A stretch of DNA of 64,000 nucleotides from Tepidisphaeraceae bacterium. GTDB lineage: Bacteria > Planctomycetota > Phycisphaerae > Tepidisphaerales > Tepidisphaeraceae. The stretch spans positions 37,571-101,570 of the forward strand of contig CBDAQA010000032.1 in the NCBI GenBank assembly GCA_965198865.1, read 5' to 3'. Positions 34,914 through 63,531 of this stretch are shown here, in pieces. A model generated the notes under the pieces. That model saw nothing but the letters and a program-made list of their open reading frames with translations. It did not search any database and was not told the origin of the DNA. Position 1 is the first letter of the stretch, and every line of letters starts with the position of its first letter. The translations under genes and the position numbers were made by a program.

Positions 34914-35643
34914 TAACCGACCGCCCGACGTTCTCCATCCGCAAGCGGGCGAGCCTGGTCTACACGCTGGACGACTACGTCGCCTCCGGCGTCCTGGCAC
35001 CGGCCGACGCCGACGTCCTCCGCCGAGCCGTGGCCGACCGGCAGAACATCCTGGTGGCCGGCGGGACCGGGTCGGGCAAGACGACGTTGGCCAACGCGCT
35101 CCTGGCCGAGCCGGCCTTCCGCCGCGACCGGGTGGTCGTGATCGAGGACACGAAGGAGCTGCAGTGCCCGGCCGAGGACCGGGTCGAGCTGCTGACCAAG
35201 GCGACGGACCCGCCGGTGAACATGACCGACCTGCTGCGGGTCACCCTGCGGCTCCGCCCCGACCGCATCGTCGTCGGCGAGGTCCGCGGCCCCGAGGCCC
35301 TGGCCCTGCTCAAGGCCTGGAACACCGGCCACCCCGGCGGCGTCGCCACGGTCCACGCCAACTCGGCCGCCGACGCCCTGCACCGGCTGGAGGACCTGGC
35401 CGGCGAGGCGTCGGCCACTGTGCCGCGACGGGCGATCGCGTCGGCGGTGAACGTGGTCGCGTTCATCGAGCGGACGGCCGGTACCCCAGGAGGACGGGTG
35501 TCGACCGTCGCACGCGTTCGAGGACTTCACGCCGGTGAGTACGCTCTTTGACAGGATAGCGGTCGGTCTCAAGTCGATGCCCATCGCCAGCCGTGTCGTG
35601 CAGCCTGGATGGCGACTGCGAAAGTCTCAAGCCCGGGCGTTTG

Positions 35644-41429: not shown

Positions 41430-42467
41430 GGCGAGCTCCGATGGTTCAGGGGTGACGTCGGCGCGGGCGATCCCAATGACGGTCTGCGGCGCCTGCCCCA
41501 GCCGCAGCTCGGCCCGGTCGAACAGGCGGTCGACGATGTACCAGTCGCCGCGAACGCGGTAGTTCACCAGCTGGGCGTCACCGTGGCGGCCCAGCACGAA
41601 CAGGGGCGGTGCCTCCGTCACGGCCACCCGGGGCGGGAACTGGACGTACGTCTTGGCCCCGTCGTCGAACGCCCGCAGCGGGCACCAGGGCGGGACCGGC
41701 GCGTGCCGCGGGCGGAGGATCAGGTAGTCGAAGTTGGCCCTGGACAGGTCCAGCCCACGGGCGACTGTCTGGCCGGCGCGATCCCGCTGCTCGGCCGCGG
41801 CGTTGCGGACCGCGACCAAGTCGCCGTACGGGTAGTTCCACGCGATCATCGTGTGGTACGCGCTGCCCCCGTCCGGACTGGTCAGGTCCAGCGCGTACAC
41901 CCGCTGGTCGGTCGTGACCAGCAGGTTGGTGCGCACGCCGGCCCGCCGCGGCTTCACGAGCAGCAGAGTCTGGGCGGTCGGCCCCGACCCTGACTCGACG
42001 CTGTCCACCGCCCACCGGGTCGTGTCGCCGGCGGCGGCCGTGATCAGCCGCTCGCCCGGCCGCAGGGCGATCGTCGTCACGTACCCGGGGCAGGTGACGG
42101 CCGTGTAGACGACGCCCGGGGCGTAGTCGTAATACTGGATCGCGTTCAGGAACCCGTCCGGCGTCGGCTGGGTCGTGGCGGCCGCCTTGGCCGCGGCCAC
42201 CGCGGCCGGGCCGCTCAGCGCGGCGGGCGTGGCGGGGACGAGCGTGTCGGGCGCGAGCGGCCGCAGCTGCGGGCTGGGCACCGCCACCCGCACCTCCACC
42301 ACCTTGGGCGGGGCGTCGTCGGCCGGGTCGTCCAGCTGTCGAACGGCGGCCTTCAGCCGGTCGTCCGGCAGGACGGGGACGGTTGGCGTGTCGCACGACT
42401 CGCAACCGGCCACCGCGAGCGCCGCCAGCAGGCAGGTGTTGTTGATGAACAGTTGGTGTCGGTTCAT
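41430..42467 (-). CDS. trbG: TrbG / VirB9 (lipoprotein signal LAALAVAGC), with no in-frame stop before trbI
   Basis: IQYYDYAPGVVYTAVTCPGYVTTIALRPGE..DTTRW. The 3' end is set at the trbI ATG because the frame continues uninterrupted. Confidence 0.75.
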
Positions 42468-48775: not shown

Positions 48776-49132
48776 TCACCACCCCGCGCCGCCGTCGAAC
48801 CCGAAGAAGGTGACGCCGAAGCTGGTGGCGGTGACGGCAATCGAGACGCCCAGCAGGAGGCCGAGGACCCGCCGCATGCCGCCGCCCTCGCTGAAGGCGA
48901 AGCCGAACCCGATCAGGACGATGGACAGGATGCACAGGGCCTTGGCGACCGGCCCGGTGAAGCTGGCCAGGACCTGGTTCAGCGGCCCCTCCCACGGCAG
49001 CGCCTGCCCGCCGCCGGCCGCCGCGGCGAACACCGAGGTGGGGGAAACGGCCACCCACGCCAACGCCACAGATACCGCGGGTACCCACGCCCTGAGCGGC
49101 CGCCGCGTCTTGGTCTGATCCTGTCGTTGCAT
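48776..49132 (-). CDS. trbC: TrbC / VirB2 pilin precursor
   Basis: LPWEGPLNQVLASFTGPVAKALCILSIVLIGFGFAFSEGG. ATG at 49132 with AGGAG upstream. Confidence 0.8.
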   Translation of the reverse strand: MQRQDQTKTRRPLRAWVPAVSVALAWVAVSPTSVFAAAAGGGQALPWEGPLNQVLASFTGPVAKALCILSIVLIGFGFAFSEGGGMRRVLGLLLGVSIAVTATSFGVTFFGFDGGAGW

Positions 49133-49262: not shown

Positions 49263-50873
49263 GCGTTAGCCCGGATTATTCATGGCCGCACCCGCCGAGG
49301 GTGCAGTATCGGCCGCGGAGTCATTCCGAGGCCGATCGGGGCCGGTCCGGCGCGGCGTGGGCAGACCGCCCCCTACCCCCACGGTCGGACCCGGGCTGCG
49401 CGACCTCAGGCGGGCGTGAAGCGGAAGGCGTTCGCCCGTGCCGCGACCGCCCGGTAGGCGTGCCAGTGCGGCCACTGGGCGGCCAGCCGCACGACGACCC
49501 GGCGGGTGGTCGTGACCACCTCGGCGGCCACCTTGAACACCCGCGTCCGCCACGCGTCCGGCCGGGCGACGCGGAGGTCGCCGGGGATCGACGGGTGGTC
49601 CCGCAGGGCGTTGAGCAGGTTGTAGGCGGCCACGTGTTCCGACAGTCTGAACGCGTTGGCCATGAACCGGTGGCAGCTGAGCCGGCCGGCCGAGAGGCCG
49701 TTCTTCAGCTCGTCCATCCGGTGCTCGCTCTCGCCCCGGAGGCAGTAGTCGTCGTACACGCGCTGGCCGTCGGCGGCCGTGGCCACGCCGGGCAGGTTGG
49801 TGACCACGAACCGCAGGTTGGTCCCGCCGGCGTGGCACTCGGCCTTGGCCACGACGGTCCGCGCGGCGTCCCAGCTGTCGGCCTGGTACTGGAAGCACTC
49901 GAACAGCCGGGCCTTCTCCCCCGTCCGCCCGTGCTCCTCGACGGCCCGGGCCATCAGGCCCTCGGTCATTCGCTTCAGGCGGGCGTTGGACGAGAAGCCG
50001 AACGTGTACGTCAGCCCGTTGCCCTCGCACGCGGCGTACATCAGCGGCAGGCCGAACCCGGCGTCCCCGCGGGCGTGGACGGCCACGCCGGGGCGGGCCA
50101 GCCGCAGGGCCCCGACGACCGCCATCAGGTCGCCGTCAGCCCCGAGCGAGGCGTGGGCCGTGCCGTGGCGGAGCGAGGCGACGAACACGTGCTTGGTCGT
50201 CGGCTCGCTGACGATCAGCGGGTAGTACTGGTACTGGCCGTAGTAGGCGTGGAACAGCGACAGCTGCTGCTGGCCGTGGGTGGGATCGTCGGTGGCGTCG
50301 AGGTCGAGGGTGACCGACTCCGGCACGGTTCCGCCGTGGTGCTCGCGCAGCCCCTCGACGCCCGTGGCGACGTGGAACGCGGCCAGCCGCAGCAGGTCGG
50401 CGGGCAACACGTCGTTCTCGAACCGCGAGAGCGTCGGCTGGCTGGCCAGGGCCGGCCCGTCCGGCCCGCGGTCGTCGGCCACGAACTTGAACACCGGGTC
50501 CCGCCGCAGGTCGTCGTGGTCGTTGCAGTCGGCGTGCCCGGCGACGATGCCGAACACCCGCTGCCGCAGCATCGACGCCAGCGGCTGGCGGCGGTCCGGC
50601 CGGGCGTCGGTCAGGCAGTCGGCCATCCGCTCGGTGTACCGCCAGGTCGCGTCGAACTGCCGGACCGGCAGCAGCCCCGCGTCGGACGTGATCTGCCCGG
50701 GGTGCCGCTGGACGAGCACCGGCGTCGGCGGGTAGAAACCGAGCTCCACCTGATCCGCAGTCTGCGCCACCATCAACGGCCTCCCGTGTCGGTTGAACTA
50801 CTCGTCGCAAAAGCAGTTGAACCACGCGGGGGCCGCTGGCGCAAGCCTACGGCTGAATAATGCGGGTTAGTGC
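49263..50873 (-). mobile_element. IS1380-family insertion sequence
   Basis: Terminal IRs GCGTTAGCCCGGATTATTCA (49263-49282) versus the reverse complement of TGAATAATGCGGGTTAGTGC (50854-50873), 16/20 matching. No clear target-site duplication. Confidence 0.7.
49406..50776 (-). CDS. IS1380-family DDE transposase
   Basis: GQITSDAGLLPVRQFD..LRQRVFGIVAGHADCNDHDDLR.DP.FK. 456 aa, the typical length and N-terminal signature. Confidence 0.8.
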   Translation of the reverse strand: MMVAQTADQVELGFYPPTPVLVQRHPGQITSDAGLLPVRQFDATWRYTERMADCLTDARPDRRQPLASMLRQRVFGIVAGHADCNDHDDLRRDPVFKFVADDRGPDGPALASQPTLSRFENDVLPADLLRLAAFHVATGVEGLREHHGGTVPESVTLDLDATDDPTHGQQQLSLFHAYYGQYQYYPLIVSEPTTKHVFVASLRHGTAHASLGADGDLMAVVGALRLARPGVAVHARGDAGFGLPLMYAACEGNGLTYTFGFSSNARLKRMTEGLMARAVEEHGRTGEKARLFECFQYQADSWDAARTVVAKAECHAGGTNLRFVVTNLPGVATAADGQRVYDDYCLRGESEHRMDELKNGLSAGRLSCHRFMANAFRLSEHVAAYNLLNALRDHPSIPGDLRVARPDAWRTRVFKVAAEVVTTTRRVVVRLAAQWPHWHAYRAVAARANAFRFTPA

Positions 50874-51047: not shown

Positions 51048-52196
51048 TTACGTCGCCCCACATGCCTCGGCCGGCTCCGGCAGGCACCGCGTATCGGCCT
51101 CGCTCAGCGGCAGGCCCAGCTGCTGCTTCAGGTAGGCCTTGGTGGCCGCCCGGGCCTGGCGGTTGCTGATGACCGACCCGGCCACCACGCACACGTCCTC
51201 CCAGTCCTTGTTGCTCTTCTTCCAGTCGATTGACCCGAACTCCGCCACCTTGGCCCGCCACCCGGCCGGGTGCTCCCGCATCAGCTCGGCCCCGATCCCG
51301 CCGATCGCACGCAGGATCGTCGCGTGGCTGCTCAGGCTCGACTGCCGCAGCTCCATCGCCTTCAGGTCGCCGAGCTTCACCTTGCCCCAGGCCGGCATCG
51401 CCTTGGTCACCTCCTTCCAGAAGTCGACCGCTATCGCGACCAGCTCGTGGTGCGTCGCCTCTTCGGTAGCCCGGTCCCGCAGCAGTTCCTGGTTGGCGTC
51501 GTACAGCGCCGCCAGGCTGAACAGGTGCCGGCTGCGGAGCGGCAGGCTGACCGCGTCCTTATCGACCTGGTCCTTAAACACCGGCACCTTCTCGCACACC
51601 TCCAGCGTGACCGTGCTCATCGGGTCCCGCTTGTCGAACAGGATATCCAATGACTTGCTCGTCTTGGCCACGTACCGGTTCAGGTCGGAGAACATCTGCT
51701 GCACCCGCCCCCGGCTCTCGTAGGGAAACAGCAGCACGCTGATGCTCTCCTCGGCCAGGGCCGGGTTCAGCTTCACCGCCTGGGCGATGGCGGCGCACCG
51801 GTGCTGGCCGTCGTTGATGACGAAGCTGGCCGTGTCCAGGTCCATGTCCAGCGTGCCGATCGCGCCGCCGTCCCCGCCGTTGGCCGCCGGGTCGATGGGC
51901 CGGAACGTCACGTCGGACTTGTACGAGGCCGTGATCGACGCAAACAGGTACCCGTCCTCGTTGTCGGTCATGTACTTGGCGATCTGCGGCACCCGCTTGT
52001 GCGTCAGCACCCGCTGCTCCCGGTCCTCCGGCGTGAACTCCGCCCAGTCCCGGAACGTGAACAGCCGGCTGATCACGCCCAACTTCATCAGGCAGCTGTA
52101 GTACGTCCGCTGTCCCATCTCGCCACGCATTGCAGGAAATTCCAGCTTCATAAAGCACTGCTTTCCGGGGACGCTCAGGACCCCCTTGGATCGCAT
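51048..52196 (-). CDS. DndB-like DGQHR-domain protein
   Basis: FPAMRGEMGQRTYYSCLMKL, FVINDGQHRCAAI (DGQHR) and QMFSDLNRY. GGGAG RBS before the ATG at 52196. Confidence 0.8.
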   Translation of the reverse strand: MRSKGVLSVPGKQCFMKLEFPAMRGEMGQRTYYSCLMKLGVISRLFTFRDWAEFTPEDREQRVLTHKRVPQIAKYMTDNEDGYLFASITASYKSDVTFRPIDPAANGGDGGAIGTLDMDLDTASFVINDGQHRCAAIAQAVKLNPALAEESISVLLFPYESRGRVQQMFSDLNRYVAKTSKSLDILFDKRDPMSTVTLEVCEKVPVFKDQVDKDAVSLPLRSRHLFSLAALYDANQELLRDRATEEATHHELVAIAVDFWKEVTKAMPAWGKVKLGDLKAMELRQSSLSSHATILRAIGGIGAELMREHPAGWRAKVAEFGSIDWKKSNKDWEDVCVVAGSVISNRQARAATKAYLKQQLGLPLSEADTRCLPEPAEACGAT

Positions 52197-52356
52197 GTGG
52201 CTCCCGCCCCGATCAGGACAGACGGAACCGTTCTCAGCCCATCGGACGAGTCCACCGCGATTGGTTTACGTCGGTTTAAACCGGCCAGGCCGCCGTCGCG
52301 ACCGGGCCGGCGGTGCCGCCGTGGCGTCCCACCTCACGCCACCGGCTGCCGAGGTT

Positions 52357-52536
52357 TCACCGGTGCCGGGTCAGCCGACAGAACTCGCCCCAGCTCAGCC
52401 GCAGGGTGAACCGCCCGTAACAGGGCGTCCACAACACCGCATCTTCAGCCATCTTTTGCAGAAAACCCCGCACGCTGCCGTCGATAATCACGGCGAAGCG
52501 CCCGTTCGCGGTCGCCGTCAGTTGAACGTCGTCCAT
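52357..52536 (-). CDS. Hypothetical 59-aa protein
   Basis: ORF only. Internal ATG chosen. No domain recognised. Confidence 0.25.
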   Translation of the reverse strand: MDDVQLTATANGRFAVIIDGSVRGFLQKMAEDAVLWTPCYGRFTLRLSWGEFCRLTRHR

Positions 52537-52768
52537 GGCCCACTCCTTGACCGGTGCGAGTCGGCCCGCCACGGCCTGCTCGGAGCGACACCCGCTCACC
52601 TGCCGGACCGGACGGTTAACTCAACGACGCGGAGTATACCGAGATGGTTTAAGAACACAAGCCATATTTTCGGTGGAAGGCGGCGCGGTGATACTATAAA
52701 TGCAGGCCGCCGACGGCAAGGGCCGTCGGCGGAACAGGTTATCGGCGTAACTGCTGTAGTTGGAGACG

Positions 52769-52987
52769 CTACGGCTTGACGTCATCCCCGTGGGCTTCAA
52801 CGAACTCGGCCAGCTCGGTCCACCCGACCCGTTTGCCATACGTCTTGTCGCGCGGCTTCCACACGACCGCTCCCTTGCTCACGTGCAGCTCGCCCAGCTT
52901 CTCTCCGTCCCGCACCACCGCGAACGCCACGTCGGCGTTCGACAGCCGCATCTTCGGGATCCGCACGCTCACTTTGTGCTTGGCCAT
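52769..52987 (-). CDS. Hypothetical 72-aa protein
   Basis: MAKHKVSVRIPKMRLSNADVAFAVVRDGEKLGELHVSKGAVVW... has protein-like composition. Lies 53 nt downstream of the helicase gene. Confidence 0.4.
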   Translation of the reverse strand: MAKHKVSVRIPKMRLSNADVAFAVVRDGEKLGELHVSKGAVVWKPRDKTYGKRVGWTELAEFVEAHGDDVKP

Positions 52988-53040
52988 CAGTTCTGCTCCG
53001 TGGAGGCAAAGTCGTGATCGGGTCGTTACGAATCCGACGA

Positions 53041-54954
53041 TCATCCTGCGACCGGTCCGGCCGTCCAAACCTTGCGGAACCGCTCGTAACCCAGTTCGGG
53101 CCGCTCGCCCTTGAAGTCGTCCTCGCAATCCAGGATGACGCACGTGTCGGTCCCGCCGAAGAGGCTGCCCCGCAGGCCGCGTCCGACGATCTGCTCGTAC
53201 AGCACACGGCTGACGGTCGGCCGGGCCATGACGACATGCGTGATCCGCGGGGCATCGAACCCCGTGGTCAACACCTCGCAGTTGCACAGCACCCGCGTGT
53301 CGCCCTTTTTGAACTCGGCAATGACCTGCCGGCGGGTCACGCTCCGCGTCTTACCACTGACAACGGCCGCCGCGATCCCCTCACTCCGCAGCAGGTACGC
53401 CATCGACTCGGCGTCGCCCACCGTCGGACCGAAGTACAGGATTGTGTTCGCTGGATCGGTACACAACGGCTTGATCTCGGCCAGGATGGCCAGCCGCCGC
53501 TGGGTATTGTCGGCCTTGATGGCCAGCGCCCGATCGATCAGTTCCAGATCTTCCTCAGACCGCTCGCCCTTGGGCAACGTCGGCATCCGCAGCGTCGTCG
53601 ACGTCTTGATCGACTGGAATGTCGGCGTGGCCAGCACTTTCATGGCCTGCAGCTTCTGCCGCGGGTTCGGGCCGAGCGTCTTGATCGGCTCGATCAAATT
53701 CTGAAAGACCTTCTTCAATTCCGCTGCGCCCTCGCCCTGGGCATCGGCCCCGTAGTCTGTCCGGAACGGAGTCGCCGTCAGCCCAGCCACGGCCACCGGC
53801 CGCGCCTTGTCGATTAGGTCGTTGAAGATTCGACGGTACGACGGGGCCGCCGCCCGATGCGCCTCGTCCACCAGCAGCAGGCCTAACGCCCGTCGCAACC
53901 CCTCGACGACATGCGCGCCCTTGTCGATCCGGCCGTCCAACAGGTTGACGATCCGCTGCGGCGTCGAGATCAGCACGCTCGGCCGGCTCAGGCACTCGTC
54001 CAGGACCGCCCGGTGCTCGGCCAGGTCCTGCGTGTACTGGCCCCAGAACCGCACCAGCACCAGCGGGCAGACGTTCTCTGAGCCCTCCCACACCTGACGG
54101 AACGACGCGTACGCCTGCTCGCACAGCTCCTCGGTGTGCGCCAGCCAAAGCACGACCGATTCCGGTGCGCCCCGCGCCGCCGCGTCGTACCGGCCCGTCA
54201 ACCACTCCTTGATGCTCTCCACCGCCACCCGCGTCTTTCCCCCACCCGTGGGCAACGTCACGATCGCCCGGTCACCCGGCCGTCCCAGCGTCGCCACCAG
54301 CGCGTCCTTCACCTCCTTCTGGAACGGCTGCAACGCCCGGATGGCGAACCGCCCCTCCAGGTACTCGTAGTCCGGCTTCGCGTCGTCGGTCGGCAGCCCG
54401 GCCAACTCCGGAGGGAACGCGGCCAACTTCACGAACTCGATCGCCTTCCGCTTGCCCGAGTGCCACTTCGCCGGCGTCTCTACTTTGGCCGCCCGGCCGA
54501 CGGCCATGCGAACGTCCGTCGAAAGGAACAGGTCAACCCCGTGGTTCAACAGCAGGGCAACCGACAGCTCGGTCTTGTTGCTACGGCGGCTCACGCCGGT
54601 CCGGGCCGTCCGCGTCTGACGGACCGTCTCTCGCAAAGGCCCGAGCAGGTCTTCCAACGCCGCGTGGGAGAGCAACGCGATCAAGCGGTCCACCGTCGCC
54701 CGTTCCCACTCGTGGGCCCAGGTGAACGCCGCCGACTCGTCCGCCGGCAGCGTCCCCTTACGCCGCCGCACCGCAAACCCGCCCACCCTCGGCGGCCCCT
54801 TCTCCAGCAGCTTATCCCGGCTCAACACCGCCTTCTGTAGCTCGGCGTAGTCGCCCTCCGATACCGACCACGTCCGGAGCACATCCTGCTTCGACAGCTC
54901 CCCCTGCTCTAAGGTGGTCGCCACGACCTCGTCAACGATGCTCGAATCCGCCAT
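53041..54954 (-). CDS. SF2 DEAH-box helicase (Type III restriction Res-like core) with an unassigned 200-aa N-terminal domain
   Basis: Motif I TLPTGGGKT, motif II LLVDEAHR, motif III GLTATP, and motif VI YEQIVGRGLRG. Confidence 0.85.
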   Translation of the reverse strand: MADSSIVDEVVATTLEQGELSKQDVLRTWSVSEGDYAELQKAVLSRDKLLEKGPPRVGGFAVRRRKGTLPADESAAFTWAHEWERATVDRLIALLSHAALEDLLGPLRETVRQTRTARTGVSRRSNKTELSVALLLNHGVDLFLSTDVRMAVGRAAKVETPAKWHSGKRKAIEFVKLAAFPPELAGLPTDDAKPDYEYLEGRFAIRALQPFQKEVKDALVATLGRPGDRAIVTLPTGGGKTRVAVESIKEWLTGRYDAAARGAPESVVLWLAHTEELCEQAYASFRQVWEGSENVCPLVLVRFWGQYTQDLAEHRAVLDECLSRPSVLISTPQRIVNLLDGRIDKGAHVVEGLRRALGLLLVDEAHRAAAPSYRRIFNDLIDKARPVAVAGLTATPFRTDYGADAQGEGAAELKKVFQNLIEPIKTLGPNPRQKLQAMKVLATPTFQSIKTSTTLRMPTLPKGERSEEDLELIDRALAIKADNTQRRLAILAEIKPLCTDPANTILYFGPTVGDAESMAYLLRSEGIAAAVVSGKTRSVTRRQVIAEFKKGDTRVLCNCEVLTTGFDAPRITHVVMARPTVSRVLYEQIVGRGLRGSLFGGTDTCVILDCEDDFKGERPELGYERFRKVWTAGPVAG

Positions 54955-55031
54955 GTTCTAGATCCCCTTTGTCCGGAGTCGGTCCGGTCGGCTGGCCGGC
55001 AGCTGACCAACTCCCGCCGGCCCTAGCTAAG

Positions 55032-55376
55032 TCACGGTCGTGACGCCGACCGGATGACGCGCCACTGTTGGTTGCCGCTGGGGCGGCCGCCCATGTTCAA
55101 TGACGGCGGCCTGTCACCGCTGGCCCGCTCGACCGTGTCGGCCAGGTCGTCTCTGATCCGGGTACTGAACCACGCGCTGAACAGCCGGAAGGCGTCCTGC
55201 TTCCCCTCAAACGTCAGTAGGTCCCTAGCGAACTCCATCGGCCGGTTACGCAACACCCACTGCTCGACCTCATGCGTGTCGAACGTGTCCTTGCTCAACC
55301 CGACCACTGCCTCGCGCAATATTTGCGTCGTGATGTGCGGAACCACAGTGCCTCCAGTTTCGTCGGAAAGGTACAC
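55032..55376 (-). CDS. Hypothetical 114-aa protein
   Basis: ORF with balanced composition. No domain recognised. Confidence 0.4.
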   Translation of the reverse strand: MYLSDETGGTVVPHITTQILREAVVGLSKDTFDTHEVEQWVLRNRPMEFARDLLTFEGKQDAFRLFSAWFSTRIRDDLADTVERASGDRPPSLNMGGRPSGNQQWRVIRSASRP

Positions 55377-55441
55377 GAATGGCCTCGGGAATATTGGTCG
55401 GTCACTTGCCGGACCGGGCGTGTGTGGCGGAGCGGGGCTCG

Positions 55442-55759
55442 CTACACGCTGGGCGGCGCGTCATCCGGTATCCCCGCGTCCGGCCGGCGTAGCCGCCCCT
55501 CGTTGACCGTGATGCGCCCCTTGTGTGTGTACACGCACAGGTTGGCCGCGGCCCGCCGGCCGGCCGTTGTGCTGCGCTTGTACGTGTTCAGCTTGCCCAG
55601 CAGTTGCCCGAGGCTGAAGTGCAGCTTCAGCGCCTCCTCAAACGTCAGATGAACATTCAGCGTCTTGGGCGAGTCGGCCGTCACCGGCGGGCTGATATGC
55701 GCGATGCTAACACTCCCGAAAGACTGCTTCGTCTTGATCTCCGCCATAATCATCTCCAT
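55442..55759 (-). CDS. Hypothetical 105-aa protein
   Basis: MEMIMAEIKTKQSFGSVSIAHISPP..LTFEEALKLHFSLGQLLGKL. Only the C-terminal part of track ORF 55442-56296 is used. Confidence 0.4.
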   Translation of the reverse strand: MEMIMAEIKTKQSFGSVSIAHISPPVTADSPKTLNVHLTFEEALKLHFSLGQLLGKLNTYKRSTTAGRRAAANLCVYTHKGRITVNEGRLRRPDAGIPDDAPPSV

Positions 55760-55805
55760 ATTTAGACGCCAGCGAACGTTTCCGTCGCCGTGGTGATGCG
55801 AGCTG

Positions 55806-56102
55806 TTACGCGGTCGGCGGGCCACCCAATTCGGCCAGCTTGGCGGCGAGGACGTCCAGCGGGTCGCGGACGGGGCGGGTTGAGCGGAGCAACTGCCGGT
55901 CGGCGGGGGACAGGCCGGAGGCGTCCTCGACCCGCTCGGCCAACGTCCGCTCCAACGCCAACTGGGCCGACAGCAGCTCGGCGTAGCGGGCCCGGCCCCG
56001 GGACTGGACGACCGCCACGGCCGCGGCCTCCGCCTCGGACGGCCGCCGACGGCCGGCCAGCTTGGCCACCCGGGCGGCGAACACGGCCGGCGGCAGCGAC
56101 AC
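55806..56102 (-). CDS. Hypothetical helical protein of about 98 aa
   Basis: The GTG at 56102 lies 19 nt after the methyltransferase stop. YAELLSAQLALERTLAERVEDASGLSPADRQLL looks helical. Confidence 0.3.
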   Translation of the reverse strand: MSLPPAVFAARVAKLAGRRRPSEAEAAAVAVVQSRGRARYAELLSAQLALERTLAERVEDASGLSPADRQLLRSTRPVRDPLDVLAAKLAELGGPPTA

Positions 56103-56121
56103 ACAGCCGACGACCGTGTCG

Positions 56122-59100
56122 CTACGCCGTCGTCGGCGGTGCGATGACGAACGCCCCAGGCCAGCCACCTTGGCTGTCGATCTTCTCGTCGATTTCTGCC
56201 ATCAGCCGAATCGTCTCGCCGAGTACAGTGACGATCTTCTGATAGTGGACAACATCCTCGGCCGACAGTGTTCGGCCCTTCCGATCCTTGAGCCACTTCT
56301 CGCAGACTTGATAACCGCCGATGCGGAAATTCCAGACAGCCTGGGAGACGTCGGAGAACGTGTCCTCACCTTGTGGGCTCAAGCGAACTCGTGATCCTTC
56401 GTAAGTGACATCACCGATAGTAGGATTCGCTCGCCCCGTGTACGTCAGCGGCGCATCTCGCAGCCGGGGCGACTCGAAAAGGTGGTATGCGATAAGCTCG
56501 TCCCCGAAACGCGAGAGTGCATCAAATAGTGAGGCGGTTCGAGGTCGTGGAAGCCGAGGAAAGACGTCGCGGAGCACTACCCCGTACCGAGTCCGGTAGC
56601 CAGGTGAGTGGAGAACGGCATAAGCATAGGCGAGCGTGGACTGCGGCGTGTCTACCGTTTTGCCATCCCGATACCGGGTTTCTTGTACGTTCGGGAGCGG
56701 TACTCCGCCGAGACGGTGCCGCCAGAGTGGAAACATCTGCGTGGCACGGTCGTGAGAGCATACCTTCTTCTCCGCGGTGTCGCGTGTAATCAGAACGTGG
56801 CAGAACTCAGCCGTCGTCTTCACCTTCGGCGTAAGCAGCGACAGGTTTTCCCGCCCTGCAAGAACGTCGGAGACCGGGCGAGATGGCGTGTCTAGTAGCT
56901 GGGGAACGTAGTAGATGTATCGTACGTCGAAAGGCCGGTACAGGATCGGCCGGACAAAATCCGACTTTATGCCTAGTCGGAGTATGAGACGTTTGCATGC
57001 CTCAACGTCCCACTTAGCCTTGACGGAGAAGCCGATTTCTCGCTGAATGGCTAGGTCGCCGGTCGGGCTGTGTGCAAAGCGACTCACGGTCGCAAGCAGC
57101 TCGTCCGGTGTGAATGCGATTGCGAGCTTATCCCGCGACGTGATTACACAACCGCTATTCATCGGCATCACTGACTCAAGGCCGTCCCACGACCGGAACT
57201 CCGTCTCCGCATCGCCGCTGGCCGGGCGAAGGGGATAGAACGGTTCCGAGGGAATGACGACTTGGTCGCTGAGCGTGCGTGAAGTGTTCGAGGCGAGCAA
57301 ATCGTATTTCTGCAAGCGGTCACCGAAGACGCGGCCGTAATTGATAGGCTTCAAAGGTGCTGACGGGGCCATCGTCCGGCTCAACACACTGATGGCGACA
57401 CCTTGCTCTATGTCGAATACGTTCTCGTCGGTTTGTCGCACGCTGTCCCGGTCGCTGACCTGGCCGCCAAGGTTTGTCACCGCGATACGGTTGAAAGTCG
57501 TCAGCGCAAGGTGGCGTAGTCCCCTCAACGAAGGCGAGTCGATGTACCTGAAATTGGTGATGAACCCACCAATCCCGACGCCTGTCTTGGACAGCACCTT
57601 AAACAAGAGTCCGAAGAACTTGACGTAATCGTCTTGCAGGTTCAGCTCGTGGGCTAATGCCCCGCGCTCAACAATGAGGGTACCATCCACATAGCGAAAT
57701 GGCTCGATCAGCCTCACCGCCTCCGGTTCAAGGTTGGCCGACATCTTCGAATACGGCGGATTCCCAATCACGACCGTAAACTGCTGTTGCTGTTTGACCT
57801 CGCTGACGGCAAGACCTTCGTGTGCCAGTGCGGGTGCCATTTGGGCGAATGTATCTGACAAATGCCGCGCCGGTTCGAGTGCGTTGGTCAGGTAGACGCG
57901 TGCCCGGTCGTTGGGGCCGAGTGTACAGCCAGTCTCAAACAGCTTGAGGCTGATCTTCATGTGCGCGATGGCGTACGGTGCCATCATCAACTCGTACCCG
58001 TAGAGTCGGGGTAGTAGGTGCGTTGAAACGTACTCGGTCCATCGCGGGTTGATCCAGAGCGGCTCAACTCCCTCTGTCCTCCACTTCGCCACCATGTGTT
58101 TGTGAATGACATCGATCACCTCGACGAGGAACGTGGCCGTGCCGGTAGCGGGGTCGAGGATCTGCACAAACGGAGTGGCCGGGTCGATCGGTCGCATTGA
58201 CGTTTTGCGAGTGGCCGGGTCGACGTGCTCGACCTCCGGCATTTTCAGGCCGTTGTGCTTCTGTAGCATCTCAGCCCAGGTGGTCGTATCGGCCAAGCCG
58301 TCGGGCAGGCCGAAGTCGGTCTGGAGCAGTTCGTGGACGGAGCGGACGATATAGCTGACGACCGGCCGTGGCGTGTAGAACACGCCGCGTTGCGTCCGCA
58401 TCTTGGCGTCGTACTCCTTGAGGAACAGCTCGTAGAAGTGGATGACCGGATCTTCGGTCGGATTGCGGTTGCCGAAGTCGGCCAGAACGGCCTCCATGTC
58501 GGCCTGACGCAGCGTGTCCACCACGTCGTTGACGCCCAACTCGTCGAAGTCGATGCCGATCAGCCGACCGGCGTCGTCGTTCCAGCGGCGGCCGCCGACG
58601 TTGAGGAACTGGGTGAGCAGATCCTTGAGGAACGGATTGCCGCTATTCACCAAGTCGACGAGGTTGTCGACGACAATGGCGTGGCCCTCGCCGGGGACGG
58701 TCCGGCGGATAGCCATTGAGAGCAGGCCGTACGAGATCGTTTGGGCGTACAGGTCGGCGAATTTGGGCTCATCCAAATCGTGAATGAGCGCCTGCTTGAA
58801 CCCGGCCAAAAGCGTCTTGAGCGGCCCGTGCTCAGTCTCGACCGACATCGAGTGCAGACACTTAGCGCGGATCTCCCTGGCCAAGGCGGCTAGCCGGATG
58901 GCGAGTTGCTTGCTGGTCTGGATGACCTGCTTCGGCCGGAGGCGGAACGCGGCGGCCCAGCGACGACGCCAGTCGTCGACAGCCTCGCCGTCCTTCCAGA
59001 CCAGATTGGACTTCAACTCGGCGATGGCGTGGTCAATGTGAAGGGCCGTGTCCTTCTCGTCCCAGCCGAGCACCTTCAACTCGGGCAAATCTGCGTGCGC

Positions 59101-59562
59101 CTCGTCCTGGGTGAAGTGGGCGAAGGTGATCTGCCGTTCGTCGTCGTTGCCGTAGTTTGAAATGAACAGCAGATCGTGCAGATTCCAAACCTTGCGGTCG
59201 TTCGGGTCGAGAACGGCCCGTTTCTTGACGACCAAGCGAGCAAGGATCTTGCGGAGCACCACGACGGGCAGCCGCTTGGGCTCGAACTGGAGGAAGAAGA
59301 TGCCCCACGGCTGGCCGGTGGCGAGCGGCCGGAGTTGCTTAATCTCCTTGATGTGTGCGGCCGTTGCAGGATCGATGCCCAACTCTTGCGGCGTGTAGTC
59401 GAAGGTCAGGTCCTCGAAATCCACTGGTTCAATCGGCCAGTGGAGGTCGTCTCGCAGGTATTCCACGAGGGATGGAAAGTCGGTGATCTCACGCAGGCGG
59501 TCACGGTCGGCGGTCGTGCTGAGCATAAGAATTCCCCGTCGGGTCAGTTGAGTTCCATCCAT
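56122..59562 (-). CDS. N6-adenine DNA methyltransferase with a Type ISP-like C-terminal specificity domain (1146 aa)
   Basis: GVFYTPRPVVSYIV, motif I ILDPATGTATFLV, motif IV VVIGNPPYSK, and C-terminal WNFRIGGYQVCEKWLKDRKGRTL (the Type ISP C-terminal signature, as I recall it). GC is visibly lower than in the flanks. Confidence 0.9.
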   Translation of the reverse strand: MDGTQLTRRGILMLSTTADRDRLREITDFPSLVEYLRDDLHWPIEPVDFEDLTFDYTPQELGIDPATAAHIKEIKQLRPLATGQPWGIFFLQFEPKRLPVVVLRKILARLVVKKRAVLDPNDRKVWNLHDLLFISNYGNDDERQITFAHFTQDEAHADLPELKVLGWDEKDTALHIDHAIAELKSNLVWKDGEAVDDWRRRWAAAFRLRPKQVIQTSKQLAIRLAALAREIRAKCLHSMSVETEHGPLKTLLAGFKQALIHDLDEPKFADLYAQTISYGLLSMAIRRTVPGEGHAIVVDNLVDLVNSGNPFLKDLLTQFLNVGGRRWNDDAGRLIGIDFDELGVNDVVDTLRQADMEAVLADFGNRNPTEDPVIHFYELFLKEYDAKMRTQRGVFYTPRPVVSYIVRSVHELLQTDFGLPDGLADTTTWAEMLQKHNGLKMPEVEHVDPATRKTSMRPIDPATPFVQILDPATGTATFLVEVIDVIHKHMVAKWRTEGVEPLWINPRWTEYVSTHLLPRLYGYELMMAPYAIAHMKISLKLFETGCTLGPNDRARVYLTNALEPARHLSDTFAQMAPALAHEGLAVSEVKQQQQFTVVIGNPPYSKMSANLEPEAVRLIEPFRYVDGTLIVERGALAHELNLQDDYVKFFGLLFKVLSKTGVGIGGFITNFRYIDSPSLRGLRHLALTTFNRIAVTNLGGQVSDRDSVRQTDENVFDIEQGVAISVLSRTMAPSAPLKPINYGRVFGDRLQKYDLLASNTSRTLSDQVVIPSEPFYPLRPASGDAETEFRSWDGLESVMPMNSGCVITSRDKLAIAFTPDELLATVSRFAHSPTGDLAIQREIGFSVKAKWDVEACKRLILRLGIKSDFVRPILYRPFDVRYIYYVPQLLDTPSRPVSDVLAGRENLSLLTPKVKTTAEFCHVLITRDTAEKKVCSHDRATQMFPLWRHRLGGVPLPNVQETRYRDGKTVDTPQSTLAYAYAVLHSPGYRTRYGVVLRDVFPRLPRPRTASLFDALSRFGDELIAYHLFESPRLRDAPLTYTGRANPTIGDVTYEGSRVRLSPQGEDTFSDVSQAVWNFRIGGYQVCEKWLKDRKGRTLSAEDVVHYQKIVTVLGETIRLMAEIDEKIDSQGGWPGAFVIAPPTTA

Positions 59563-62500
59563 GCCTTAAGGACCGGCACGACGCCAATCGGGGCCTGGGC
59601 GGAGCGAAGATACGTGTTCTTGATGTGTCGCTCCACTTTGCCCCGCACGTCGGACAGCGTCTCGCGCGGCACATCGAGCTGCCGCGGGGTGGACGGGTCG
59701 GAGCGGATGACGGTGGCGATGTCGGGCGGGGACTCGGCGATCAGGCCGGTGTTCAGGTCGTACAGGTACCAGCGGGTCTCGCCGGCGGCGTCGGTCCAGG
59801 GCGGCGGCTGGGGCGGGGGCGGGGCGGCGTTGAACAGGGGGGCGACGTCGGCGGCCGTGGTGCGAACCACCGCCTTGGGCGGGGGGCCGGGCAGGCGGTA
59901 GCAGAAGAAGACGGCGCGGACGCCGGGCGCGGGGTGGGCGCGGCCGCTGAAGACGCGGTTGGGCATGGCGGCCACGGCGGCGGCGAGGCCGGGGTGGTCG
60001 GCCAGAAGTTGCTTGTACTCGGTCTGGAGCCGTTCGCCGGCCGTCTGGGTGCCGTCGTACTCCTCGTTGAACTCCTTGAGGGCGTCGTAGTCGTCGTCGG
60101 GCGTGAGCAGCTGGCGGCCCTCGATGCCGAACGTCTTGCTGATCCGCAGCGTCTTGTGGGTGACGGTGGCGTACAGGCTGAGCAGGCGGTTGAGCGCGGT
60201 CGGCGGGAGGAAGTTCCAGTAGATGACGGTGCCGCGGACGGCGGCCTGGTCGGGGTGATCGGCCACGAGGGCGGCCTCGACCTCGCCGTTCAGGCGGCGG
60301 TCGACGCGGCCGATCCGCTGCATGAGGCGGACGGGATTCCAGTGCAAGTCGTAGTTGATCAGCCGGGTGGCGTCCTGCAGGTTCAACCCCTCGGAGAGGA
60401 CGTCGGTCGAGATCAGGATGCGGGTCTCGGGCAATTTCTCGGTGGCCAGGCCGGCGGACGTGGTGCCGTTGTAATAGGGGGCGAACTGGCGGATGACGTC
60501 GCCGCGGTCGCCGGCCGTGGACCCGTCGATCTGGGCCAGGCCGGTCAGGCCGGCTTCATTGAGCTGATCGGCCAGATACCGGGCAGTGGCGGTGAACTCG
60601 GTGAAGATGAGCACCTTGCGATCGACCAGGTCGGGGTCGGTCGTGAGCAGGCGGATCAGCTCCTGCAACTTGTGGTCGTGGGCGGGGCCGAAGTGGGCCA
60701 GTTCCTTGAGGAAGTCGGCCACGGTGTCCAGATCGGTCTGGGTCTCGCCGAGCATTTTGGGGACGTCGTACACCTTGCGGTCGAGCTTGTTGGCCCAGGC
60801 GTCCTCCATCATCTCCTGGGGGACCAAATCCTCGGCCGGCTCCTCGTCGAGGTTAAACAGGTTCCGGTCGACCTCGACCCGGCCGACGATCTCGGCGTGG
60901 CGGGTCTTGAACTGGGCGAGCCACCGCTTCTCGGTCGTCGTGTCGCTGTGGACCTCGGCGAAGGCGAGCAGCTTGAGCAGCAACAGGCGGCACGACTGAC
61001 CGAAGGCCTCGGCCGAGCTTTCGAACCGTTTGAGGAAGCTGGTGCGGATGAGCGTGACGATCTGCTTCTGGCGGCCGGCGGTGGCGCCGGGGAACACCTC
61101 GTCGGCCCCGGTCGGCAGCTGGACCGTGCCGACGCCGGAGACGGGGTAGGCCAACGGGTCGTAGATGGCCAGGGAGAACAGGGCCCGGCCGTTGCGGAAC
61201 GCCTTCTCAAGCAGGTCGAGCAGCCGCTCGTAGCCGGCGCTGAGGTCGTAGCCGGCCACCCGGGGCGGTTGGCGGACCGGGAAGATCGCCTTCGCGCCGC
61301 CCTCCCGCGCCTGGCTGTCCCGGACGAACCCGCGGCTCCGCTGGACGACGATGCGGCGGAAGAGACGGTCGTCCGACAACACCTGTTCGGCCTCGATCAA
61401 GTCGGTGATCGGCTCGCCGTCGGCGGCGGCACCGGCCGTCGCGGCGGCCACCGTCTGTTTCAGATCCTGCTCCATCTTGCGGAAGTGGCCGGGGAGCGAG
61501 TGGATGCCCAGCGTCGGGTCCAGCGACTGGAAGTAGCCGGGGTCCTTGCGGCTGAACAGCTCGATCATGTGCTGCAAATCGATCAGCCGGTTGTTCACCG
61601 GCGTGGCCGTGAGCAGGAACATCTGCTTGCCGCCGCAGATCTCGAACAGCTTGCGGTACCGGGACGGGTTGCGGTCCCCGTGGCCGGCCAGGCCGGGGTT
61701 GCGGAAGTGGTGGGCCTCGTCGATGACGAACGCGTCGAACCCCTCAGCCACGTCGCGGAACTCAGCCGGGAAGTCGACGTCGGCGGTGACGCCGCGGATC
61801 AGGTCCGTGTGGTTGAAGATCTTCAACCGCTGGCGGCTCACGCGGGGCAGGTACCGGTCGATGGCCGCCTGCCAGACCGGCTTGCGGGCGGCCTTGGGGA
61901 CGAGCAGGCAGACAAACTTCCCCTCCTGCACCGTCAACCGCTCGATCAGCATCAGGCCGACGAACGTCTTGCCCAGCCCGACGCCGTCGCACAGGAAGGC
62001 CCCGCCGAACCGGTCGGCGATCCGCACCAGCTGGTGGTATCCGTCCCGCTGGTACCCGTCGAGCAGGCGGTAGACCTGAGAGTTGTTCCGCTCCCAGTCG
62101 GTCGCCGTCTGCTGGACGTCGGCGAACAGCTGGTGCAACGAACGGGCGTATACGTCAAACGGCGTGTACGGGCGCACGTGCCGGTCGACGACGGTGAGCA
62201 GGGCCGACGTCACGTCCTCGGCGTCGGCCCAGTAACGGTCGAACCAGTCGGCCACCTGAGCGGCAGTGGGATCGTCCACGCGGACGTTGAGCTCGACGTT
62301 CCGCGAAAGGCCAGGCGCGGTGAAGTTGGACGAACCGACCACGGCGCTGACGCCGTCGGCCGGTGTGCCGCGGACGATGTACGCCTTGGCGTGGAACCGG
62401 GTCTGTCGATACAGGCGGCACTGGATGCGGCCGGACCGCAGCCCGGGGGCGATCTCGTCGACGCCGGATAGGAAGTCGTCGGCGGTCTTGGTCGCCTCAA

Positions 62501-62768
62501 CGCTCTCGTCCAGCGCGGCCGTGATGCGGCCGACCGCACGCGCGAACGCGGTCGCGGTGCGCAAGCTCACCTCGGGGTCGCCCATCAGGATGCGGACCGG
62601 GCGGGTGCCGGCCCAGGCGTCGCCCAGGGCGAGCGGCCCGCCGATCTCCAGGTGACCGGTGGCCACGTCCAGAGAAGTGGCCGGGCCGGACCAGGACCGC
62701 AACAGGGCGGCCAGCCGGCGGGACTCGTCGGCGTTGTCGAAGAGGAGGTCGTCCTGTTCCGGTGTCAC
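59544..62768 (-). CDS. PLD-family nuclease domain fused to an SNF2-family helicase (1074 aa)
   Basis: N-terminus RFHAKAYIV...VVGSSNFT (HxK..GSxN). Helicase motifs DGVGLGKT, VIDEAHHFRN, LLTATPVNN and a C-terminal HELICc region (DLHWNPVRLMQRIGRVDR). Confidence 0.9.
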   Translation of the reverse strand: MTPEQDDLLFDNADESRRLAALLRSWSGPATSLDVATGHLEIGGPLALGDAWAGTRPVRILMGDPEVSLRTATAFARAVGRITAALDESVEATKTADDFLSGVDEIAPGLRSGRIQCRLYRQTRFHAKAYIVRGTPADGVSAVVGSSNFTAPGLSRNVELNVRVDDPTAAQVADWFDRYWADAEDVTSALLTVVDRHVRPYTPFDVYARSLHQLFADVQQTATDWERNNSQVYRLLDGYQRDGYHQLVRIADRFGGAFLCDGVGLGKTFVGLMLIERLTVQEGKFVCLLVPKAARKPVWQAAIDRYLPRVSRQRLKIFNHTDLIRGVTADVDFPAEFRDVAEGFDAFVIDEAHHFRNPGLAGHGDRNPSRYRKLFEICGGKQMFLLTATPVNNRLIDLQHMIELFSRKDPGYFQSLDPTLGIHSLPGHFRKMEQDLKQTVAAATAGAAADGEPITDLIEAEQVLSDDRLFRRIVVQRSRGFVRDSQAREGGAKAIFPVRQPPRVAGYDLSAGYERLLDLLEKAFRNGRALFSLAIYDPLAYPVSGVGTVQLPTGADEVFPGATAGRQKQIVTLIRTSFLKRFESSAEAFGQSCRLLLLKLLAFAEVHSDTTTEKRWLAQFKTRHAEIVGRVEVDRNLFNLDEEPAEDLVPQEMMEDAWANKLDRKVYDVPKMLGETQTDLDTVADFLKELAHFGPAHDHKLQELIRLLTTDPDLVDRKVLIFTEFTATARYLADQLNEAGLTGLAQIDGSTAGDRGDVIRQFAPYYNGTTSAGLATEKLPETRILISTDVLSEGLNLQDATRLINYDLHWNPVRLMQRIGRVDRRLNGEVEAALVADHPDQAAVRGTVIYWNFLPPTALNRLLSLYATVTHKTLRISKTFGIEGRQLLTPDDDYDALKEFNEEYDGTQTAGERLQTEYKQLLADHPGLAAAVAAMPNRVFSGRAHPAPGVRAVFFCYRLPGPPPKAVVRTTAADVAPLFNAAPPPPQPPPWTDAAGETRWYLYDLNTGLIAESPPDIATVIRSDPSTPRQLDVPRETLSDVRGKVERHIKNTYLRSAQAPIGVVPVLKAWMELN

Positions 62769-62832
62769 GTAGCAACCCCTTTGGTGAATGAGATCTTGCG
62801 CTCGCGGCCCTCACGACTGGGGCTGCTTGGCG

Positions 62833-63531
62833 TCAGTGTTTCGGGAGGTTGGACCAGGCCTGGTCGACGGCCTGCTTTAGATCCGCACCCTCGGGGACGG
62901 TGTACCCTTGACGCCCGTGCCGCACGAGTAGCCCCGTACGGACGAGGAGCGCCAGGCACAGGTAGACCTGGTAACTCGGGAGGTCAGCCAACTGATCCTC
63001 GCCGGGTGGCAGGATCTGCTCGGTCGTAAACCGCCGACCGCCGGCGCCGAGCTTGGTGACCAGGGACGTCAGCCGGTCGAGGACTTCGCGCGGGCTGCGG
63101 TGCTCGTATTCACGCCGGTCCGACTTGCTGTAGCCGACCTTCACTAGGGTTTGGCCGTCGTCGTCGACCTGGAATACGGGGTAGCGGCCGGTTTCCGGGG
63201 TTCCGCGTCCGGAACGTGCTGCTGCCCGTTTTGAAGGTGCCGGGCGCACTGTTGCAGCCGCGGCGCTGCCATCGTGACCCCCATCGGCTTCGCCCGGCGT
63301 GGAGCTCGTCTGTTCCCCGGGAGACGCCGTGAGGCGGGCCGCCGCTCGAACCGGGGTCTGTGCCTGGCCGACTCCCCTGACCAGAACCGAAAGCCCGTCA
63401 GCCACGGACGCGAGGGCAGCCACGGTGGCGAACTCCTGCCGACGGTGCGCCTCGCTGACCAGGCCGCTCAGATCGCGGATCGCGGCCGCGAGTACCTTGT
63501 GTGCTTCGGATAACAGCAACTCGTCGGGCAT
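62833..63531 (-). CDS. Hypothetical 232-aa protein, first gene of the minus-strand cluster; C-terminus looks winged-helix-like
   Basis: YPVFQVDDDGQTLVKVGYSKSDRREYEHRSP...LPSYQVYLCLALLVRTGLLVRHGRQGY. The domain call is weak. Confidence 0.45.
   Translation of the reverse strand: MPDELLLSEAHKVLAAAIRDLSGLVSEAHRRQEFATVAALASVADGLSVLVRGVGQAQTPVRAAARLTASPGEQTSSTPGEADGGHDGSAAAATVRPAPSKRAAARSGRGTPETGRYPVFQVDDDGQTLVKVGYSKSDRREYEHRSPREVLDRLTSLVTKLGAGGRRFTTEQILPPGEDQLADLPSYQVYLCLALLVRTGLLVRHGRQGYTVPEGADLKQAVDQAWSNLPKH

Follow-up and report, generated by a model that had tools for sequence, protein, structure and literature searches.

A composite locus on a planctomycete conjugative element: a PLD-SNF2 helicase and methylase pair, a DndB cassette and an inserted DEAH helicase

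Ten open reading frames (ORFs) lie in close succession on the minus strand of a 64-kb stretch of DNA from a Tepidisphaeraceae bacterium (hereafter the window; the host genome has approximately 72% GC). The genes they represent, which include a PLD-SNF2 helicase, an adenine methylase, a DEAH helicase and a DndB-like protein, raise the question of whether the cluster is one defence machine or several units sharing a neighbourhood. A previous reading, made from the sequence alone (the sequence-only reading), had favoured one combined system, possibly a Dpd-like restriction machine coupled to adenine methylation. Our analysis shows that the cluster is a composite and not a ten-gene machine: DndB does accompany the SNF2/methylase half, as had been proposed, whereas the DEAH helicase is excluded from the set and the Dpd analogy fails. 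We consider it rather probable that the locus represents layered defence cargo, made up of a restriction-modification-like (RM-like) pair, a portable DndB cassette and an inserted helicase stretch.

All ten ORFs are present where the sequence-only reading had placed them, co-directional and separated by the short gaps it had described (64, -19, 19, 46, 65, 77, 53, 232 and 205 nt, from G1 downwards), and its domain assignments agree with the Pfam, PADLOC and NCBIfam results. The ORFs are as follows, with lengths in amino acids (aa).

62833-63531, minus strand: G1, 232 aa; helical N-terminal region, disordered linker and conserved ~115-aa C-terminal domain
59544-62768, minus strand: G2, PLD-SNF2, 1074 aa; Pfam domains PLDc_2, SNF2-rel_dom and Helicase_C
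56122-59562, minus strand: G3, methylase, 1146 aa; N6_Mtase, Eco57I and Type_ISP_C
55806-56102/56168, minus strand: small ORF, 98-120 aa; third-position GC (GC3) 0.90
55442-55759, minus strand: 105-aa protein, from a family of small proteins accompanying the DndB cassette
55032-55376, minus strand: small ORF, 104-114 aa; GC3 0.81
53041-54954, minus strand: G5, DEAH superfamily 2 (SF2) helicase, 637 aa; ResIII, DEAD and Helicase_C
52769-52987, minus strand: 72-aa ORF, accompanies the G5 helicase
52357-52536, minus strand: 59-aa ORF, directly upstream of DndB
51048-52196, minus strand: DndB; DndB Pfam family, DGQHR; probable start at 52151

Coding support from GC3 (0.75-0.95) was obtained for nine of the ten ORFs. 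For G1, GC3 is 0.76 across the whole ORF and the GC3-based caller backs the C-terminal 103 codons only; the full-length 232-aa ORF is called in both sister conjugative elements, L083 and L085. The arrangement is not a chance run of ORFs, because it is syntenic with these sister elements at 92-95% DNA identity. An alternative 72-aa ATG ORF at 52621-52839 lacks coding GC3 and was rejected as a gene. For G1 and the small ORFs, sequence searches of Pfam, PADLOC, NCBIfam and the PDB gave nothing usable; neither G1 in any of the four nor the 105-aa protein in Pfam or the PDB has a match.

The PLD-SNF2 helicase and its methylase partner

The PLD-SNF2 gene and the methylase gene form the conserved core of the cluster. 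Among 80 metagenomic loci with G2 homologues of 29-57% identity, 48 have a complete gene end and at least 1.5 kb of downstream sequence, and in 45 of these 48 a same-strand methylase starts no more than 1.6 kb from the G2 homologue. The methylases of the 45 loci belong to two families, the Type_ISP_C type (31 loci) and the MmeI/TaqI_C type (14 loci). The same layout is found on the Synechocystis plasmid pSYSX, where the two genes are annotated as "helicase-related protein" and "DNA methyltransferase".

G2 and its divergent relatives all match the PADLOC model "HKD+Snf2" best, which we take to be derived from Gao_RL; for G2 itself, the match (1.8e-40, 137 bits) indicates moderate similarity. 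Its invariant motifs comprise H126-x-K128, GSSN145, GLGKT264, DEAH350, TATP387 and QRIGR817, and a Foldseek search with a low-confidence AlphaFold2 (AF2) model (predicted local distance difference test score, pLDDT, 63.6) returned Snf2 remodelers, SauUSI, RapA and ZorD. G2 is thus an HKD/PLD nuclease fused to a Swi2/Snf2-type SF2 ATPase, predicted to act as a translocating nuclease effector. No modified-base reader domain was recognisable in it by Pfam.

G3 matches Type_ISP_C (2.7e-60) and the PADLOC model REase_MTase_IIG (4.6e-148), the latter with its best-scoring stretch at residues 642-1126. Its PDB relatives DrdV, LlaBIII and LlaGI align from residue 463 on (DrdV from residue 464), and both motif I (DPATGT, at 470) and motif IV (NPPY, at 601) are intact. 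Since motif I precedes motif IV and the recognition domain is C-terminal, the enzyme is assigned to the gamma class. G3 is therefore a gamma-class N6-adenine methyltransferase with a Type ISP-like recognition domain, predicted to act as the specificity and modification subunit.

Both methylase families share an N-terminal domain of ~200 aa with many invariant Trp, Phe and Leu residues; the invariant positions include W42, P43, QPWG84-87, F89, F93, R104, W126, F133, F150, W167, W189, W198, W202 and F206. Because it has no conserved acidic/lysine triad, this domain is probably not a PD-(D/E)XK nuclease, and no nuclease Pfam family, including MmeI_N, matches the N-terminal 460 aa of G3. The sequence "FEPK" of G3, considered as a PD-ExK nuclease motif, was rejected as it is unconserved across 52 homologues. 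The domain is lacking in the methylases of locus L089 and in a second methylase of the window (see below), which has no PLD-SNF2 partner, and it differs in the lineage of L176 and Synechocystis, whose helicase differs too. From this distribution we infer that it is the docking module for the helicase-nuclease.

G1 homologues lie directly upstream of the PLD-SNF2 gene in L083, L085, L086 and L171, and none was found at this position in 57 other loci. In these loci, G1 accompanies only the closest clade of the PLD-SNF2 gene; that it is a DNA-binding regulator is a guess.

Furthermore, five loci (L088:16570-17646, L092, L095, L100 and L133) encode a ~358-aa protein with a weak CBS match, its gene lying a few kb beyond the PLD-SNF2/methylase pair on the downstream side. 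Relatives of this protein are also encoded close to distant G5-like helicases in L045 and L020, and it may represent a further accessory component.

The DndB cassette and the inserted helicase stretch

The association of DndB with the pair emerged from three DndB homologues of at least 70% identity (L171, L175 and L176), which were picked on the length of the surrounding sequence alone. In all three (70-78% identity), a PLD-SNF2 gene lies beside DndB. The same adjacency is found in the three conjugative elements (the window, L083 and L085), which brings the total to four independent contexts, with helicases from three lineages that share no more than 26-31% identity. L171 is chromosomal, and its DndB gene is divergent from a G1-like gene, a G2 homologue (62%) and a G3-type methylase (52%). 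The order in L175 is methylase, PLD-SNF2, 104-aa gene, 61-aa gene, DndB, and in L176 it is PLD-SNF2, MmeI-type methylase, 108-aa gene, 153-aa gene, DndB; the partner helicases of these two loci are only distantly related to G2 (31% and 26% identity, respectively). The part of the combined-system proposal that joins DndB to the SNF2/methylase half is thereby borne out by six loci; the part that includes the DEAH helicase is not.

Two small proteins travel with DndB. The 105-aa protein has counterparts of 108 aa in L176 (82% identity) and of 104 aa in L175 (45%), each encoded between the PLD-SNF2/methylase pair and DndB. Its family comprises 237 clusters in a full-library phmmer search, nearly all of them stand-alone proteins of 85-120 aa, and the eight longer variants checked with Pfam have no informative partner domain. 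The 59-aa protein corresponds to 60-aa ORFs in L083 and L085 (87-88% identity) and, more distantly, to a 61-aa ORF that precedes DndB in L175 (37%). A repeat or operator common to the regions upstream of DndB in the four loci was not found, and a scan of viral contigs returned no member of the DndB clade.

DndB itself is well recognised by Pfam (7e-94), scores 327.5 bits against the TIGR03233 cutoff of 328, and retains the invariant features DGQHR129, QMFSDLN167 and R284-x6-H291. Its true start is probably Met16 (52151), because homologues begin there. The identity to canonical DndB proteins of dndABCDE operons is only 36-41%, and tblastn searches with pTiAF3.44 queries found no dndA, dndC, dndD or dndE in the 64-kb window and nine related loci, in agreement with the earlier statement that the Dnd modification genes are lacking. 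DndB has been described as a ParB-like domain fused to HEPN, and ParB-like proteins are known to associate with modification systems (Makarova et al. 2013, PMC3632139). The invariant R284-x6-H291 fits a HEPN-like motif, and we predict that DndB, a protein of the ParB/Srx fold, is a nucleotide-dependent regulator of, or a second effector attached to, the restriction-like pair.

Other DndB relatives (51-68% identity) have different neighbours. The relative in L174:10001-13639 lies beside a 240-aa protein and a GHKL (HATPase_c_3) ATPase, that in L177:10001-13683 beside a Dam-like methylase and a DUF6996/6997/7226 protein, and that in L089:5866-13355, on a 15-kb Neorhizobium plasmid, beside a TIR protein, CopG and two N6 methylases. 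Some members of the DndB clade (P0250, P0255, P0257-P0259, P0263, P0264, P0271, P0276, P0291 and P0298) carry a C-terminal extension of ~110-130 aa, which by BLAST is unrelated to the small cassette proteins; one member has a precomputed SeqA Pfam match.

The sister elements show which parts of the cluster are stable and which are exchanged. L083 matches the window at 92-95% DNA identity in three stretches, namely G1-G2, the helicase together with the 72-aa ORF, the 60-aa ORF and DndB, and the type IV secretion system (T4SS). Its methylase gene, a member of the MmeI_Mtase/Eco57I/TaqI_C family, shows no similarity to G3 at the DNA level, and DUF4062 and a 119-aa gene replace the two small genes at 55032-55759. 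L085 retains G1, G2 (93% identical), a methylase, a 100-aa ORF, the 60-aa ORF, DndB and virB2. It has no helicase; in its place are a dCTP-deaminase-like gene and DUF1653, and part of the 72-aa ORF persists. In both sister elements a methylase of the other family thus stands in for G3 (56122-59562 in the window, 4641-8003 in L083 and 13228-16410 in L085), the entire gene having been swapped next to G2 genes that are 92-94% identical, and the swapped methylases share only the ~200-aa N-terminal domain, at ~30% identity. The GC3 of G3 (0.75, compared to 0.94 in neighbouring genes) fits a recent replacement. The 98-120-aa small ORF (55806-56168) is 88-92% identical to an 83-aa ORF in L083 and the 100-aa ORF in L085, and no homologue was found outside the sister elements among the loci examined.

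The hot spot of L085 (16420-19059) also encodes, besides DUF1653, a 295-aa protein with a weak PADLOC PDC-S42 match and a 338-aa DCD/dUTPase-domain protein without a PADLOC match, the latter being a possible dCTP-deaminase defence gene.

The DEAH helicase G5 is cargo and not a core part. In addition to L085, the helicase gene is absent from L171, L175 and L176. Conversely, in 84 loci with helicases of this family (two looked-up genomes and 82 from a species-representative genome collection), no PLD-SNF2 gene, methylase, G1 or small ORF was found nearby, and only one has a DndB-like neighbour, a distant relative. The sequence-only reading had counted this helicase as part of one set, which these loci contradict. 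Family members from Gemmataceae, Thermoanaerobaculia, gammaproteobacteria and other groups show 53-72% identity. In an AF2 model of G5 (pLDDT 78.8, predicted template modelling score 0.76), a winged-helix-like unit at the N-terminus and a helical domain are combined with a RadD-like motor, whereas a nuclease domain is lacking; the top Foldseek match of the model is RadD (1e-13). G5 was rejected as RadD itself, as the match covers the motor core only and the N-terminal domain differs. The locus with the DndB-like neighbour is L068, from a Latescibacterota metagenome-assembled genome, where a DndB-like gene (7997-8731, 28%) lies 1.3 kb upstream of a G5-like helicase (29%).

Two small ORFs lie beside the helicase. 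The 72-aa ORF is 97% identical to its copy in L083, as is the helicase, and the L085 remnant is 84% identical over 44 aa; with 31% identity (E 5e-5) to the 59-aa protein, it is a distant paralogue of the latter. The 104-114-aa ORF (55032-55376) has no homologue in L083, L085, L171, L175 or L176 and no family match, and probably belongs to the inserted stretch. Promoter and terminator scans gave chance-level signals only. Between the 72-aa ORF and the 59-aa gene, at 52707-52732, there is a GC-rich hairpin of 11 perfectly paired bp and a 4-nt loop, at which the transcripts of the inserted helicase unit and of the DndB unit could be separated.

Genomic context, proposed mechanism and competing explanations

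The window is a conjugative element, and the cluster is cargo at the head of its T4SS operon, directly upstream of virB2 and in the same orientation. The sequence-only reading had placed the cluster next to insertion sequence (IS) and integrative and conjugative element DNA; indeed, a DDE transposase insertion of 1.6 kb follows, with T4SS, coupling-protein and relaxase genes beyond it. The two nearest features are:

49268-50862, unstranded: IS, DDE_Tnp_1_4 transposase at 49406-50776; context, outside the system
48776-49069, minus strand: TrbC/VirB2 pilin gene, Pfam TrbC 8.3e-15; first gene of the T4SS operon; context

The transposase domain match is strong (7.9e-112). L083 lacks the stretch 49268-50862, its flanks being joined directly with an overlap of ~6 bp, which may be a target-site duplication. 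Further transfer genes include a DUF3363 relaxase gene (28991-30958), a VirD4-type coupling protein gene (30955-32823), a VirB11-like fragment, a VirB9/VirB10 fusion, VirB4, VirB3 and TrbC/VirB2; no tRNA attachment site was found in the window. The putative fusion is a single 767-aa ORF (40164-42467) with CagX/VirB9 (residues 108-335) and TrbI/VirB10 (572-754) regions and looks like a VirB9-VirB10 fusion. At 33744-35551, a DDE_3 transposase fragment (207 aa) adjoins a short VirB11-like ATPase (273 aa) that matches the T2SSE profile in part only, which suggests that another IS broke the transfer genes. Between this fragment and the VirB9/10 gene, a low-GC3 island (0.75-0.77) on the plus strand (35945-39780) encodes the second Type IIG-like methylase (1043 aa; PADLOC REase_MTase_IIG 2.9e-84) and a 235-aa ORF.

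For the core pair, we propose a mechanism by analogy to the MANTIS system (preprint 10.64898/2026.09.23.753747) and to the PDB relatives DrdV, LlaBIII and SauUSI. As other members of its family do, G3 would use its Type ISP-like recognition domain to read an asymmetric site, where it would methylate one adenine. At unmethylated sites, it would recruit G2 via the conserved N-terminal domain, as the co-variation of this domain with the helicase lineage suggests. G2, by analogy to SauUSI and MtsD, would dimerise to form a single HKD active site, translocate with its Snf2 motor and cut DNA. G1 would be a clade-specific accessory protein, for which a regulatory role is conjectural. The cassette of 105-aa protein, 59-aa protein and DndB would repeatedly attach to such pairs, with DndB, a putative ParB-fold nucleotide-binding protein with a HEPN-like R-x6-H motif, most likely either controlling the pair, as DndB represses dnd, or acting as a back-up effector. 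The RadD-like helicase, the 72-aa ORF and the 114-aa ORF would fill a hot spot between the layers and be needed by neither.

A bolder and, in our view, doubtful extension is that the DndB-clade ParB-fold NTPase and its two small partners constitute a portable loader or regulator cassette for pairs of HKD-Snf2 proteins and gamma-class methylases, taking the part played by AAA+ proteins (MtsA, BrxC) in MANTIS and BREX. If true, this would define a new ATP-dependent RM family, with methylation or cleavage gated by a ParB-like nucleotide switch.

Several observations weigh against the layered explanation. The recognition site, the methylation and the cleavage are all predictions. The first 460 residues of G3 have no recognised fold and could still hold a cryptic nuclease. 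In L086 (Humisphaera borealis CP063458.1:546670-569750), a G2 homologue (65%) is accompanied by a G1-like gene but has no adjacent methylase, and neither a methylase nor DndB lies within 10 kb of the two genes; either the system has decayed or a methylase encoded farther away serves it. With regard to the cassette, only four independent DndB contexts are available, and DndB relatives at 65-68% identity (L173, L174 and L177) have no PLD-SNF2 gene. Moreover, DndB is found in none of the 80 loci with G2 homologues of 29-57% identity and is therefore dispensable for the pair in general. DndB is conserved at 70-78%, compared to only 26-62% for the partner helicases, a gap that argues against tight protein-protein co-evolution. 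Given the divergent partner helicases and the 65-68% relatives beside other modules of the DNA-modification type, the cassette looks portable, with a preference for the PLD-SNF2/methylase architecture, and not like an obligate subunit.

These features bear directly on whether all ten genes could form one Dpd-like multi-helicase restriction complex that marks its own DNA by adenine methylation. The short gaps and common direction would suit such a machine, as would L083, which keeps the full order at 92-95% identity except for the methylase and two small genes, and G2 and G5 show weak matches to the DpdE and DpdF models. However, L085 has no helicase yet retains G1, G2, a methylase, the 60-aa ORF and DndB; L171, L175 and L176 are also devoid of it, and none of the 84 helicase loci has a PLD-SNF2 or methylase partner. 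The Dpd-like reading fares no better on its own terms, since DpdB scores 20 bits against a cutoff of 300, no TGT/DpdA is present, and the DpdE/DpdF matches reflect generic helicase lobes. We regard a single complex as scarcely credible. The opposite possibility, that three stand-alone systems with no relation to one another (the pair, DndB and the helicase) have gathered at one hot spot, would account for the variable stretch between the methylase and the 59-aa gene of the sister elements (DUF4062, dCTP-deaminase-like gene, small ORFs), for the GHKL ATPase, Dam-like methylase, and N6 methylases with a TIR protein beside more distant DndB relatives, and for the very unequal divergence of DndB and its partner helicases. 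It is nevertheless unlikely: a PLD-SNF2 gene lies within ~1-7 kb in all six DndB loci of at least 70% identity (on the same strand in five), the six fall into four independent genomic contexts with helicases of three divergent lineages, and PLD-SNF2 genes are too rare for this to be chance. Furthermore, the window and L176 share 82% identity in the 105-aa protein but only 26% in the helicase of the pair.

Two further explanations would reassign single components. DndB and the 59-aa protein might serve the conjugative element, through T4SS regulation or through Osa-like ParB/Srx fertility inhibition or anti-defence; PMC10853773 cites (as its reference 19) a ParB/Srx protein that takes part in plasmid conflict. 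DndB is the final gene ahead of virB2 in each of the three sister elements and shares the orientation of the T4SS, and DndB-like genes occur on 930 plasmids, 801 of them predicted to be conjugative. The same DndB clade is, however, present in L171, L175 and L176 with no T4SS genes nearby, the IS of the window already parts DndB from virB2, and the three inspected among the many plasmid matches below 40% identity correspond to two canonical dndABCDE operons and one unannotated record, which makes a role in element biology improbable. Alternatively, G3 might be a self-sufficient Type IIG/IIL restriction-methylase whose N-terminal part contains a cryptic nuclease, while G2 acts on its own as a SauUSI-like Type IV enzyme. 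REBASE-derived PADLOC models do class G3 (4.6e-148) as a Type IIG restriction enzyme-methyltransferase and the L176 methylase likewise (1133 bits, full length), and the PLD-motor layout of G2 resembles SauUSI. Independence of the two is hard to reconcile with their adjacency in 45 of 48 loci, the lack of an invariant Asp/Glu/Lys/His triad and of a nuclease Pfam match in the N-terminal domain, the absence of a modified-base reader in G2, and an N-terminal domain that follows the helicase lineage and not the methylase family; we consider it very unlikely. The layered explanation thus remains the one we prefer.

Significance and relation to known systems

Pairs of an HKD helicase and a methylase without an AAA+ partner are apparently very common; the search with G2 returned 5,796 proteins at E <=1e-20, other SNF2 proteins included. 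Present tools label such loci only as "Type IIG RM", as PADLOC would label G3 alone, and "helicase-related protein". If the pair works as proposed, it would be the simplest version of the logic of MANTIS, Type ISP and DISARM, and a tractable model for a methylase that hands unmodified sites to a translocating PLD nuclease. The swap of methylases between near-identical helicases points to a modular docking domain that could be used to retarget specificity, and the recurring cassette gives an orphan DndB clade a testable role beyond phosphorothioation. The locus also illustrates that co-directional genes packed closely together on a conjugative element may have arisen by nested insertion and need not form a single system.

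No named system spans the whole set, as the sequence-only reading had maintained: PADLOC and NCBIfam matches to DISARM, BREX, Dpd and Dnd are partial or below threshold. A full-text search of a limited literature library turned up no account of DndB, HKD-Snf2 and a methylase together in one system. The BREX components PglZ and BrxC are unmatched in the cluster ORFs (Pfam, PADLOC). Dnd systems (DndABCDE) have a possible counterpart here in DndB, a borderline equivalog with intact motifs, and no dndA, dndC, dndD or dndE accompanies it in the loci of its clade. Class 1 DISARM (DrmA, DrmB, DrmC, DrmD, DrmMI) is built from the same parts, namely a PLD nuclease, an SNF2 helicase and an adenine methylase, and G2 partially matches DrmD (NF038317, 123 bits against a cutoff of 610) and DrmC. 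In contrast to DISARM, however, the PLD nuclease and the SNF2 helicase are fused here, the DUF1998 protein DrmB is lacking, and so is DrmA, for which there is only a weak lobe match of G2. SauUSI resembles G2 in having a single N-terminal HKD domain followed by an SF2 motor, with a dimer-built active site expected in both, but it possesses a methylated-cytosine reader and no methylase partner, whereas G2 has no reader and is not methylase-independent.

Type ISP enzymes (LlaGI, LlaBIII) come closer. They likewise couple an SF2 motor and a nuclease to a methylase and recognition module, which is homologous to that of G3 (LlaBIII 895-1457 aligns to G3 463-1028). While a Type ISP enzyme is a single chain with an Mrr/PD-(D/E)XK nuclease, the functions are divided here between two genes with a 19-nt overlap, the nuclease is PLD/HKD, the motor is Swi2/Snf2-type, and G3 has the extra N-terminal domain.

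MANTIS / Gao_RL (MtsABCD, a BREX-related type 2 system) provides the second close relative, as its HKD/PLD-SF2 effector MtsD can be likened to G2 and the methylase-directed logic is in common. It requires a DUF499 AAA+ protein (MtsA), a DUF3780 protein (MtsB) and an alpha-class methylase (10.64898/2026.09.23.753747; BR type 2, PMC12839542). DUF499 has no match in the ten ORFs or in the called genes of L083, L085, L171, L175 and L176, and DUF3780 has no Pfam match in G1 or the small ORFs at E up to 5. Furthermore, MtsC is of the alpha class with a central recognition domain (10.64898/2026.09.23.753747), in contrast to the gamma class and C-terminal Type ISP-like recognition domain of G3, and MANTIS has no DndB cassette, which is present at this locus. 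The locus thus appears to be a variant within the ATP-dependent, methylation-based restriction family, whose closest known systems are MANTIS/Gao_RL minus its AAA+ loader and a split Type ISP enzyme.

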